From positions 620,001 through 684,000 of the forward strand of contig CDLV01000019.1 in the NCBI GenBank assembly GCA_001244265.2: a DNA stretch of 64,000 nt. The letters are read 5' to 3'. Each line of letters begins with the position of its first letter. The stretch's first letter is position 1. The DNA comes from Microbotryum violaceum. Lineage: Eukaryota. Shown piece by piece: positions 1 through 16,330 of this stretch. The translations under genes were made by a program, and so were the position numbers. Under the pieces are notes generated by a model. It made no database searches. It saw only the letters and a list, made by a program, of their open reading frames with translations, and was not told the DNA's origin.

Positions 1-1828
1 GATCGGACGTTGAAAGTCAACACGGTGAGGGACTCAATCATGATTGAATCAGATCAGCGCCGCCCCCTTCGAATTCCGGCACCTCGGACCTGTAACCCCC
101 GGAACTGTTGCCCCTGAGTCGTCACCCCCTGATGCACCGTGGATCATGGCGGATCCCGCCCGGGTGACACGTCGGTTGCCGGGTGCCGAGCTCGAACGAA
201 GGCGTCGAGGACTCGTCGAGGCTATCGAGGTCGTCGAGGTTGCCGATGATTCCGACGTGCCACCGGACAAAGGCGATGCCGGAGCAGAAGTAGAAGGCGA
301 AGGAGAGGTCGGGGTCGAAACGGGCGCCGCTGTCGTCGTCTGCGTCTCCTTTGTTGGGCCCGTGGTCGCACGGGTCAACGTCTCTTTCCCAGTGTCGCCG
401 CCCTCCGGTTCGGTCGAAGCGACCGATTCGCCGTCGTCGTCGTCGTCGTCACTGTCGCCGTCGTTCGCATCGTCCTTGTTGCCGGTCGCTGCACCTGCGG
501 GGTTAGCACGAGGTCCCAGCTGGATCATGTTCGTGCCAGAGGCACGAGAGTTCAATGCGGCGGGCCCACCGTGCTTCCCATTCTTTCCAGCAACTCGGAA
601 GCCGGTGGTCGAAGTCGAAGTCGAAGTCGAGGCCCCCGGAACAGGGGCGGCGGTGGCCGGAGTCGAAACCGGCTTCCTGCAAGTCCCCCACTGGTGTCCA
701 GCGCGATCGCACACGGCGCAGTAGTGCGTCTCAAATTCGTGTCGCAAGCCGTACTTGGCGCCCAGGATCTCGATCTCTTGTGGCAAGGCGGCGTTGAGCG
801 CAGCCTTCTGCGTCTCGGTGGAGCCTTGGAAAAGATCAGCATGTAAGCGAAGGTACGCGCAGTGGAACCCGTCTTCGGTCATGGCCATCGGATCCCCATT
901 CGGATCGACCGCGAGGCCCCGCTGTAATTGCATCAGGGTATAGCCTTGCGTGCGACCTGCGCGGCCGAACGAAAGGGTGAGAGCATCATCGAGAGATTTT
1001 CGGAGCACGGAAGCGGGAATCGCGCTGGAAGAGGAGGGTAAGGTGAATCGCACCTGGACGATGTGGTTTAGGGGGAAACACTCGGGAGCTCGGTGACCAT
1101 CTCTTTTCCGTGATAGGGGAATGGACCCGCTGCAGCGGCTTCGAGACAGGCCTGGTCGGATTCGAACACGAGCTCGTACATATGACGAGCAATCGGGAAC
1201 CTCTTCGTTGCCTTCGTCACGATCGGGTTCAGCTTCACACATTTCGAGAAGAGCTTCTCGACCTCGGGGTCAAGCTCGGCGCCCTCGGGCCGCGCGAACA
1301 TGAATGGCGTCTCGGCCAGCCCAAAGTGCTCACGCAGCGCAATCTGTACAGGGCCTCTTGGGGACCCAGTACCATCCATGATGACTCGGATCACGTTGGA
1401 GGCCGGCATCGCGTCGTTTCGTACCGCCCTTTGAGCAGCTCGTGCGAGAGCCGGCGCCTGCGAAGGCGGGCTGGAAGGGTCATGCAACAGTACCATCAGC
1501 CGGCGGGTCGACTTGGAGGATGGTACGATGCCAAGGGCTTTGAAAGCCTTCTGCATCGACTTCTCATGGTCCAATCGAGCCTGAGAAGCCTGGGCAGACC
1601 AGGCTGGAGGATTAACGGTTCCTCCAGTGACCGTCTCACGGGTTTCCGTGTTGAGTGATTCATCTCTCAACACGTCACCAGCCCACGGGGCGTTGGGCGG
1701 GTGCGGGGGTGGGCCGGGCGGATCCGGCATCACTTCTTGTCGTCGTCCTGTAGCTCTTGAAGCGGTTGGTGGGCGACTGTACACACTACACGACGGTACA
1801 CACTTTGTGTGTGTGTGTGTGTGAATAG
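1..1828 (-). mobile_element. Non-LTR retrotransposon element A (5' part: 5' UTR, ORF1, start of ORF2); continues beyond window start
   Basis: ORF1 from ATG 1730 (MPDPPGPPPH..., frameshifted between track ORFs 1068..1859 and 49..1242) with zinc knuckle CAVCDRAGHQWGTC; ATG at 41 opens MIESLTVLTFNVR, an AP-endonuclease N-terminal motif like [11 protein letters not shown] and MIDFIIMTWNV of the neighbouring elements. Confidence 0.85.
38..1730 (-). pseudogene. LINE ORF1 (gag-like, CCHC zinc knuckle) of element A, frameshifted
   Basis: CX2CX4HX4C knuckle followed by a low-complexity acidic/Ser-Thr tail; an alternative frame ends DLIQS-stop overlapping the ORF2 ATG. Confidence 0.75.
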
Positions 1829-2485
1829 GATTTTTTTTTTTGTAGAAAACGTTCATCATATTGCCCCCAGTTCCTGTTCCCCCTGTTTTGGCCTACGGAA
1901 AAACTAGATGGAAGACTACGATGATAACACAAACCGCCCGCAAAAGTGCGAGAAACGAGCCAAGTCCACCAATCCGAGATTCGGATTCAAATGCCCTAGC
2001 CAAGCGGTTGCTCCCCCCAGGAGACTAATGAGAGAGAGAAAGAGAGATGAAGAGAAAAAAAAGAAAGAAAAGAAATGTACTAACGACAGAAGGCCCACCC
2101 CACAGCCACTTCCCACTCGGTCGAGACGAAGACAAGAGCACGACTGCGCAACCACCACGACCCTCGACGCTCCAAGTCTCTGCTCAGTCACAACAAGACG
2201 CGGTGAAGGTCCCTCAAAACCTCCCCATCGGCAGTCCCTGGCCCCTCAAAGCCGACTTTCTGCCTGTGTCCGCTGATCCCTCCCTTGACTCAGAACCCCG
2301 AAGCCGAAGAGCGCGAGCCACACCGAGTCGACGCCAAATCGCGAGATGGTCAATGATCCGCAACGATGAACCTGTAACAAATGAAAGACGAAAGCGATCT
2401 ATTTAGTGTACAGTAGGAGAAAATGATGTCACGAGAATTTGGTGTATGTGTGTGGTGGTGGTGGGGGGAAAGTCGAACCCAGCCT

Positions 2486-5400
2486 CTACTGCCCTCTCCT
2501 CCCCCAAGCTCCTCCCGCCCTCAGCTTCAATCTCTCCTCCAAGATGATCCTCCTCCTCCCAACACCCTCCATCCTCGTCCCCCACTTCTGCATCCCCCAC
2601 CTCCCGCTGCTGATCATCTCCAAGACCAGCCCGGTGAATATTTCGATCGTCCTCCCCGCTCCTTCTTGATCGCGTAGACTGGCCTTGAGCTTCGGAAGTC
2701 CGAACAAGCGTTGAACAGCCGTGTAATGCGTGTTGTCGATTGTGTCGAGCCCCAGTGCGTCGCAGAGCACGCTCCTTGCCGCGATCCAAACGTTCCCAGA
2801 GTCAACGCAGTCGAAGAAGTAGTGCTCCCGATCGTCCTTGGGCGCTCCACAGACGAGGCACGCGGGCGAGTCGTCGTGCTTTTGATGAAACTGCAGACTC
2901 CGAGTCGGGGTGAAGTTCCTGACGAGCTTGAACCACACCTCGCGTTCCCTCGCCGTCAATGCCTTCGAGTTGACCCCCTTCCAGAATCCCTTGATATCGT
3001 CGGGCTGCAGCGAGTCCCTGAAACTGATCGTGTCGGTGAAGGCCTTTGCATTCAAGACTCGGCGGACGCGACGGATGGTGTATGGCCGATCCATGCTGAG
3101 CAAGTTGTATTGTGTTGATTGGTCTGGGAGAGCCGGTCTCGGAAGGCGCTGCGGCGGGTCGATCGGATGGGGCAGGATCGACTCGAGCGGGTGGTGGGCG
3201 GACCTCGGATCTGGGGCGGACTCGGGGAGGCCCGTTGATTCGTACTGCCGCCACCGGTTGAGCTATTGGTGTGAACCTTAATCGATTGATCGCATGTCGG
3301 TACCATGCCACAATGTGCTCTCGTTGTGGGCGGCCCCGTTGATCGTATTCGCTGTTGCTGACGACCACATCCGTCGGCGGCGTCCAGAGATGAAAGCCCC
3401 CGCCCGGGTACAGCTCGCGTCGAAACAGGTCGGCTACCTTGGCGTAAATGGCAAACGCAGCATAGTCGGCGTCGTAGGGTGGTCGCGACACAGCTGGTGC
3501 TCCTGGTAGGTAGTGAAGGGTGTGCAACTTGATCGGAAGAGCGAGAAGGTTCGCGAGCGTCAACATCCTCGGCTTGACTTGCGCATTGTGCGTCGATGGT
3601 ACCTTCAGCACGGCCTGCCATCTTGGGTGTAGATCGGTTCGGATCGGAGTGTAGTCGCAAGGCCACGCATCAGTTGCCAAGTCAAAGTCGGGGGCGGGAT
3701 GGGCTCGTACAATTGCCGCGCGCGCAAGTCCCTGCCAGATCGCATCCGAACCGCCAAGAAGCACATCCCAGACGCGTGCCGCAACCGAGTCGACGACGTC
3801 CTGCATCCGCATGACCCCAAGACCCCCTTGAACCTCGGTGTGAAGACGACGTCCTTGCCATAGCACGACCTCCTCTTGCCGCCGCGGACAAAGTCGACGA
3901 GAATGCGATCAAGCTCCTTGACGACCTCAAGCGGTGGGATGTCGGCGGAGAGGATGTGCAGAATCTTGGGAATGGCAAATCGGTTGACGTAGAACGCTCG
4001 GTGTGGTGTGTGAGCCCCCGGTCCCGTGCCGAATCGAGCACCGCTTCGAGCCGTGCGACGAGATTCACGTTGGCGAGTTCGGTGTTGCCGGTGGGTTCGA
4101 AAGATAGGCCGATCCACTCGAGCGACTCGCCCTCGGCCTTGACGACGAGCGGACGATCGCCAGCCTCCCAGCGACACCCGATGGGTAGTACGACGGTCTT
4201 GTCGGTGTTGAGCCGGCCATTGGTTGCGAGCCTCCAGTCGAGCGCCAGGTCGTCGAGCAAGGTGAGTGACTCCGAGCCCGCGACGGCGACGACGACGTCA
4301 TCGGCAAACGCAAGAGATGTAATGGCGCGGCTCTGTGGGTAGGGGTGAATGGTAGGAAGCGAGAGGTTCAGCGCGATGCCTCGACGGTGCAGAGCATCCA
4401 GGAACGGCTGGAACACGACATCCCAGACCGACGACGACGCCGGGTCCCCTTGGCCGAGCCCACACGTCAGCCGCACCGGCGGAGTCAAGAAGCCGTTGAT
4501 GATATATTGCGCCGTAGTCGAGTCACCCGAGTAGAGCATCCTCAGAACGCGTTGGAAGGCGGCAGGAGCGCCGAGAGCGTCAAAGATGGCGAAGATCCAT
4601 TCGTGCTCGACGAGGTCGTAAGCCGACGATTGGTCAAGAGACAAGAGCGCCGCGTCAGGGAACTCGGTGCCGCGCGCGCCCAGCTCCTCGATCAAGAGTC
4701 GCAGGTGGAATGACGCGTCCGCCGATCGGCGGCCCTTGACGAAGCCGTGCTGTTGCGGTGGGAGCAGGTCCGGCAGCACGTGGTTGAGTCGCGCAACGTA
4801 GACCTTGGTGAAGAGCTTGTAGTCACACTCGCGCAAGGTGATGGGCCGGTACGACGAGAGCTCGGCGCGATCGGCCCCGATCTTGTGGTGCTTGAAGAGC
4901 AGGCGAACGAGTCCTTGCCCCTGCTTCGGTGAAAGCGAGCCGCGCTCGGTCATCGCGTTGAAAGCCCTGCTCAGCGCCTTGGCCCACGCCCGCGGCGCTG
5001 TGTGATAGAGCTCGTAGGGCACGCCAGATGGACCCGGCGATCGACCGGGGTGCGTTGTTGCGATTGCGGCTACGACCTCGTCCTCGGTGATGGGTTGCTG
5101 CAGCAGCTCGATGTGCGCTGCCGAGAGTCGTCGCAGAAAGAGCGGGTCCGAGCTCGGGTCGTCGCAAGTGCGCGCCGCCCTGATCGGCGCCAAGAAATCG
5201 TCCCTACGTCGCTCGACGTGGTCCCGATCGCGCGGCTCGAGATTGTAGAGGCGCTGAAAGTGCGCCTGTGTGTAGTCAAGCGCGACGTCAATGTCATGTG
5301 TCAGCTCCCCGTTGGGCAATCGCAGTGCTGTGATCTTGGAATCCGAACTCCGTGCCGCGAGCTTGGCGCGGACCGGCCGCGACAGTCGTTCCTCGGTAGC

Positions 5401-16140: not shown

Positions 16141-16207
16141 GTATTTACTACTAAAACAGAAGAGGCTGGGTAGGACAGTCTACATTTGTGTTACATTAAT
16201 GAAAATG

Positions 16208-16330
16208 GGGCGGATGGTCGAGTGGTCTAAGACGCCAGATTCAAGGATTACGAGTTTATTGTAACTGCATTGCGTCGCAATGATATTCCTGGTCTCGAAA
16301 GAGGCGTGGGTTCGAGTCCCACTCCGCTCA
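16208..16330 (+). tRNA. tRNA-Leu(CAA) with ~41-nt intron (about 16246-16286)
   Basis: Acceptor GGGCGGA/TCCGCTC-A, A box TGGTCGAGTGG, anticodon loop TTCAAG, long variable arm GTCTC-GAAA-GAGGC, T arm GTGGGTTCGAGTCCCAC, T5 terminator just downstream. Confidence 0.9.

Follow-up and report, generated by a model that had tools for sequence, protein, structure and literature searches.

The LINE stack and its neighbouring tRNA gene

We analysed a 64 kb stretch of the genome of the anther-smut fungus Microbotryum violaceum (Basidiomycota; assembly GCA_001244265.2, contig CDLV01000019.1, positions 620,001 to 684,000 of the forward strand), here called the window, with coordinates counted from its first nucleotide. 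Its first 16 kb hold a stack of long interspersed nuclear elements (LINEs) that ends a short distance upstream of a tRNA-Leu(CAA) gene. Positions 1-16142 consist entirely of LINE material, all of it on the minus strand, in five pieces (A, B, D, C and B', in order of position), and the left end of the stack continues beyond the window start. Judged by their sequences, the five pieces are assigned to at least three L1-like families with predicted endonuclease and reverse transcriptase (RT) domains. The stack is real, and we are highly confident that repeated target-primed reverse transcription at an oligo(T) site explains its single strand, its exact tail-to-head joints and its mixture of families. 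As to what selects that site, we give roughly even chances to the proposal that these L1-clade LINEs seed themselves in oligo(A) tails and that the adjacency of the tRNA gene is incidental. The stack and the tRNA gene comprise the following features.

1-1830, minus strand: LINE A, 5' part (5' untranslated region (UTR) and open reading frame 1 (ORF1) with a CCHC knuckle), third family; 5' end at 1830, remainder outside the window
1831-8877, minus strand: LINE B, full length (~7 kb); body 1842-8877, T11 tail 1831-1841
8878-10215, minus strand: element D, 1.3 kb, non-coding; body 8890-10215, T12 tail
10216-10225, minus strand: T8 and then GA, separating the D 5' end from the C tail
10226-14904, minus strand: LINE C with a T44 tail; body 10270-14904, 5' truncation inside ORF1
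14905-15999, minus strand: B', copy of B lacking its 5' part, with a T9-C-T37 tail; body 14952-15990, 9-nt filler ending in GA at 15991-15999
16000-16142, minus strand: seven short units of 15-23 nt, each a T9-14 run joined to GTATGA or a variant of it (the final 6 nt of D with a tail)
16143-16207, no strand: AT-rich host spacer of 65 nt between the LINE stack and the tRNA gene
16208-16330, plus strand: tRNA-Leu(CAA) gene with a 46-nt intron

The open frame of LINE A at 49-1269 matched the N-termini of the LINE gene models P0041, P0042, P0044 and P0045 (tblastn, 81-99% identity). LINE B encodes ORF1 at 7231-8811 and ORF2, with endonuclease and RT, at 3682-6564; ORF2 runs on in two other frames (2802-3908 and 2486-3103), and its spread over three frames implies two frameshifts. 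Element D was matched by none of 54 LINE proteins, ends on its sense strand in TCATAC plus poly(A), and shares 68% identity over 134 nt with the 3' UTR of B in its own 3' UTR (blastn, E 3e-9); from these features it would be either the 5'-truncated 3' region of a LINE or a non-autonomous relative. The T8-GA between D and C is either the scar of a tail-only insertion or the true start of D. In LINE C, ORF2 (endonuclease and RT) is divided between two frames, 12506-14545 and 10338-12815, and 14347-14892 is matched by residues 408-568 of P0039 (tblastn); at the protein level its ORF2 is 51-65% identical to that of B. B' shares 97.25% identity over 1056 nt with the 3' end of B (self-BLAST), with 970 of 985 aligned columns identical and no substitution among the first 600.

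The 5'-most 65 columns of B' are far more diverged from B (48 identical) and are followed by the 9-nt filler, the whole spanning 15935-15999, which may reflect template switching or chimerism at the 5' end. A 7-nt match of the filler to the D-arm region of the tRNA was dropped, since chance alone would be expected to give one so short.

The T runs at the joints are T11 at 1831, T12 at 8878, T8-GA-T44 at 10216-10269, T9-C-T37 at 14905-14951 and T14 at 16000, and the 5' end of every element directly meets the T run, that is the poly(A) tail, of the next copy. Read on the sense strand, an A run lies ahead of all five large 5' ends, and each of the four 3' ends inside the window carries a poly(A) tail (11-47 nt on the large elements). 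Among the 13 T runs at the joints, 10 have GA ahead of them. A preliminary description of this DNA had tentatively read GA(T)n as a target duplication regenerated by each copy; the full-length elements A, B and D may instead just open with TC on their sense strand. The same description had proposed at least five minus-strand insertions that abut through T runs with no host DNA between them, are not nested, read GA(T)n at most junctions apart from the one at 14904, and stop 71 nt short of the tRNA gene with their 5' ends towards it. Each of these points was borne out: five insertions are present, the elements are collinear, the B' filler is the single unaccounted stretch between them, the T run at 14905 lacks GA, and 71 nt separate the end of the last T run (16136) from the tRNA gene, which begins at 16208, or 65 nt if the terminal GTATG belongs to the unit.

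Absent from that description were the seven short units, one of which carries, in addition, the final 22 nt of B (16079-16100). The T8 plus GTATGA motif occurs seven times, against 0.01 expected from shuffles, and Tandem Repeats Finder reports a period of 15 with 4.8 copies and 88% matches at 16004-16081. We considered GTATGA as a target-site duplication and found this unlikely, as the terminal bases of D align with the related terminus of B. The short units lie strictly apart from the large elements, an arrangement that is unlikely under either of the readings of site choice weighed below if all events were independent; slippage or stuttering of the RT may therefore have grown part of the array.

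The tRNA-Leu(CAA) gene scores 43.2 bits against Rfam (gathering score 29), is also called by ARAGORN with its intron option, and is directly followed by a T5 run. By both programs it is the single tRNA in the 64 kb window, and it is the single Rfam match there; ARAGORN with default settings called no tRNA in the window, this intron-containing gene included. The lowest G+C content of the window, 0.456, falls at 16001-17000. At 16386-16429, 56 nt downstream of the intact gene, part of the tRNA-Leu 3' exon recurs (variable arm, T arm and 3' side of the acceptor); this partial copy agrees with 16288-16330 at about 37 of 44 columns, has no 5' half and drew no Rfam call.

Domain content and family placement

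ORF2 of LINE B matches the Pfam families Exo_endo_phos (E 2.5e-6) and RVT_1 (E 3.2e-19), and ORF2 of LINE C matches the same two (8.5e-7 and 7.9e-13, respectively). The layout, an N-terminal apurinic-type endonuclease followed by the RT, is that of L1-clade LINEs, and the closest solved structure is human LINE-1 ORF2p (E 2.6e-21), with R2 at 1.2e-13. From these Pfam and PDB matches, ORF2 is predicted to belong with the L1-type elements. Cys-His (CCHC) knuckle motifs are visible by eye in translated ORF1 from both A and B, for which Pfam gave no match. A C-terminal zinc finger (zf-RVT, PF13966) is annotated on relatives including P0005, P0006 and P0032; the C-terminal ORF2 frame of LINE B had no Pfam match at E 0.01 or better.

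Fifty of the 54 protein matches to the B ORF2 are named Microbotryum, the best being to Microbotryum saponariae (98% identity) and M. silenes-dioicae (90-97%). Against the gene models whose N-termini match LINE A, the B ORF2 shares 31-38% identity. Locus numbers of LINE gene models are frequently neighbours in other Microbotryum genomes (e.g. 4324/4325 and C40g00189/00190), which suggests that clustering is general. Beyond these genomes, ORF2 matched generic endonuclease and RT clusters alone in a protein atlas, a metagenome scan with the ORF2 alignment matched 65 pattern stretches of which none was confirmed, and a metagenome scan with the 22-nt B tail gave no matches.

The remaining 48 kb of the window

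Downstream of the stack the window holds ordinary genes, including a cohesin loader, a SUMO-like protein, an M16 peptidase and a citrate-lyase-like enzyme. No RT was found there by tblastn apart from old B-related fragments at 25993-26702, which gave six tblastn matches and consist of two pieces on the plus strand.

25993-26233, plus strand: old B-related 3' UTR piece (blastn 73% over 244 nt, E 6e-35)
26572-26702, plus strand: old B-related ORF2 C-terminal piece (blastn 70% over 117 nt, E 3.5e-12)

These fragments are intergenic, just past the cohesin-loader gene on its 3' side, and their order does not fit one element. Rfam in E-value mode found no tRNA around them (24.8-27.6 kb). We tried 26548-26581 as the 3' end and tail of an old fragment and rejected it, its alignment score of 36 being no higher than those of shuffles (maximum 37).

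The cohesin-loader gene, 11 kb from the tRNA gene, has orthologues in BQ2448_6044 (78%) and BQ5605_C052g12586 (100% over 26%), and a fragment of it matches an M. silenes-dioicae protein at 100% identity. None of the 54 LINE protein matches bears the C052 tag, and the nearest BQ2448 number among them is 6237, against 6044 for the cohesin loader. On locus tags alone, and assuming both synteny and annotation of transposable elements, this weakly suggests that no LINE ORF2 model lies near the orthologous cohesin-loader gene in those annotations.

Outside the stack there are 13 A/T runs of at least 8 nt; all 13 are without a LINE and none has a GA prefix. Two of them, T34 (37082-37115) and T30 (42987-43016), lie just downstream of plus-strand stop codons, adjoin no LINE 3' end and are unusually long homopolymers given a genome G+C content of 57%.

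Two further repeats were observed. A pair of 452-nt inverted repeats, 97.6% identical, at 59294-59744 and 63460-63911 surrounds about 3.7 kb with three open frames (281-326 aa) that had no Pfam match, and the pair may mark a DNA transposon bounded by long terminal inverted repeats. The self-comparison also showed short direct repeats, ~90-100 nt long and 83-84% identical, at 19971-20178 and 20796-20876.

Choice of the insertion site

If the LINEs seed themselves in tails, the endonuclease and primer choice of the Microbotryum L1-clade elements would favour an oligo(T)/oligo(A) site. A founder copy would have entered a T tract on the tRNA coding strand, within the AT-rich spacer that precedes the tRNA-Leu(CAA) gene. 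Each insertion would then add a poly(A) tail and probably duplicate the A run, which would provide more targets at the locus, and a same-strand, head-to-tail pile would grow, fed by several LINE families, with aborted events leaving a few bases and a tail as the short units. The tRNA gene itself would go unrecognised, its upstream spacer having merely given an A/T tract where insertions do no harm.

The A runs on both flanks of the stack elements are the arrangement known from Zorro3 of Candida albicans, and we take them as support for poly(A)-seeking insertion. Passages on Zorro3 describe poly(A) on both of its flanks, integration into poly(A) and the lengthening of A tracts by insertion (PMC7175516, PMC3956500), and they present an L1-type fungal element which, like the LINEs here, has zinc knuckles in ORF1 and an endonuclease and RT in ORF2. 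Head-to-tail stacks of several families or neighbouring tRNA genes are unreported in the same passages, and a further difference is that, in the present stack, TC follows the A run at most 5' ends. Zorro3-like insertion into poly(A), named in the preliminary description as the rival to tRNA targeting, explains the same-strand, tail-to-head layout equally well. Zepp, of Chlorella and Coccomyxa, offers a second comparison, and its copies reportedly insert into each other's poly(A) tails (Higashiyama, 1997). The account of Zepp in PMC3446292 describes clusters of nested LINEs, with copies that pile into one another in local GC-rich clusters of a compact genome, as here; it differs in giving one cluster per chromosome, at telomeres or putative centromeres, formed by a single family and without a link to tRNA genes.

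Three further observations point the same way. The families that share the site are divergent (31-38% identity between the B ORF2 and the gene models that match A, 51-65% between B and C), for which a generic property of the endonuclease is a simpler explanation than a shared protein tether. The old B-like pair at 25993-26702 lies in one orientation without a nearby tRNA gene, so that one of the two LINE-bearing loci in the window is at a tRNA gene, and this counts for tail-seeking; so do the neighbouring locus numbers of LINE models in other Microbotryum genomes.

Several findings weigh against self-seeding in tails. The only young LINE cluster in the 64 kb adjoins the only gene transcribed by RNA polymerase III (Pol III), with its 5' ends facing it; by our own estimate, a stack edge placed at random in the window would fall this near the tRNA gene with a probability of about 71/64000 x 1/2, or ~6e-4, a value that is weakened by the post-hoc choice of the locus and by the likelihood that tRNA spacers are AT-rich and safe for insertion. 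The 13 A/T runs outside the stack, T34 and T30 among them, stand empty. The seven short units, like the B tail fragment, all lie at the end of the stack nearer the tRNA gene and none is in the T44 or T37 tails, for which we estimate p ~0.002 if eight independent events chose tails uniformly. Lastly, the tails of the large elements lengthen towards the tRNA gene (11, 12, 44 and 47 nt), which fits an order of insertion with the newest copy nearest to it.

These same findings carry the alternative that the Pol III complex on the tRNA gene directs the insertions, as in TRE5 of Dictyostelium discoideum, a possibility that we take seriously and lean against. A LINE protein would recognise the complex and nick the T run ~65-71 nt upstream, the A run would be regenerated, and each new copy would lie nearest the tRNA gene with older copies pushed outward; stated so fully, the scheme is tentative. 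According to passages of a 2018 review, TRE5 integrates 44-54 bp upstream of tRNA genes, with its direction of transcription opposite to theirs, TRE5-A targeting involves binding of ORF1 to TFIIIB and depends on the B box, and the evidence spans hundreds of copies (PMC5911963). The preliminary description had drawn the parallel with a fixed short distance and this orientation, and the review agrees. The stack resembles TRE5-A, TRE5-B and TRE5-C in that several related families of LINEs with an endonuclease and RT share one type of position, ahead of a tRNA gene and in opposite orientation: its elements are on the minus strand, the tRNA gene is on the plus strand and downstream in window coordinates, and the 5' ends face the gene, at this one locus. 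The window's sole tRNA gene is the site of its sole young cluster, the rest being ordinary gene-dense DNA, and the near-identity of B and B' attests to very young copies.

Against direction by the tRNA gene stand the following points. The case is a single locus, picked post hoc, and its distance of 65-71 nt falls outside the TRE5 range. The exact joints of 5' ends to tails, with no fragments of host spacer, can be had from sequence-directed priming without a tether; the old B-like remnants at ~26 kb have no tRNA gene; and the same targeting would be needed in several divergent families. The prior is lowered further by the literature. The tRNA-targeting non-LTR elements tabulated in the 2018 review are those of dictyostelids alone (PMC5911963), passages of the M. 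lychnidis-dioicae genome paper, which lists 134 tRNAs and 392 LINE copies, make no mention of a relation between the two (PMC4469406), and full-text searches, together with passages of PMC5006619, PMC5911963, PMC7175516, PMC3956500, PMC4469406 and PMC10886601, turned up no fungal LINE described as targeting tRNA genes, in keeping with the statement in the preliminary description that none was known.

It is improbable that the array is, wholly or in part, something other than a series of insertions, through mis-assembly across homopolymers or through the growth of the short units from one unit by slippage, unequal exchange or RT stuttering: homopolymers of 37-44 nt and the near-identical ends of B and B' are hard to assemble, the short units form a period-15 array, and their sharp division from the large elements is, by our own estimate, unlikely for independent events of one process, yet the large junctions all differ and link separate families, which is not what a collapse would yield, and the 22-nt B tail fragment and the variant units indicate at least some separate events.

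One locus cannot separate attraction by the tRNA gene from insertion of copies into one another's tails. If the insertions are not directed by the tRNA gene, as self-seeding in tails would have it, the stack is a clean example of poly(A)-seeking LINEs building self-feeding, one-directional stacks in a compact genome, and a caution against taking a single adjacency as targeting. If the gene does direct them, a diverse clade of Microbotryum L1-type LINEs would recognise Pol III genes and insert ~65-71 nt upstream of them in opposite orientation, a convergent counterpart of TRE5 and the first outside the dictyostelids, which we regard as conceivable at less than even confidence; that these would be the first tRNA-targeting LINE clade in fungi is a suggestion we make with the same reserve. 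Target choice based on Pol III would then have arisen independently in fungal LINEs, and the many long-read assemblies available for Microbotryum would make it well suited to asking how an element that nicks and primes can read a protein landmark.

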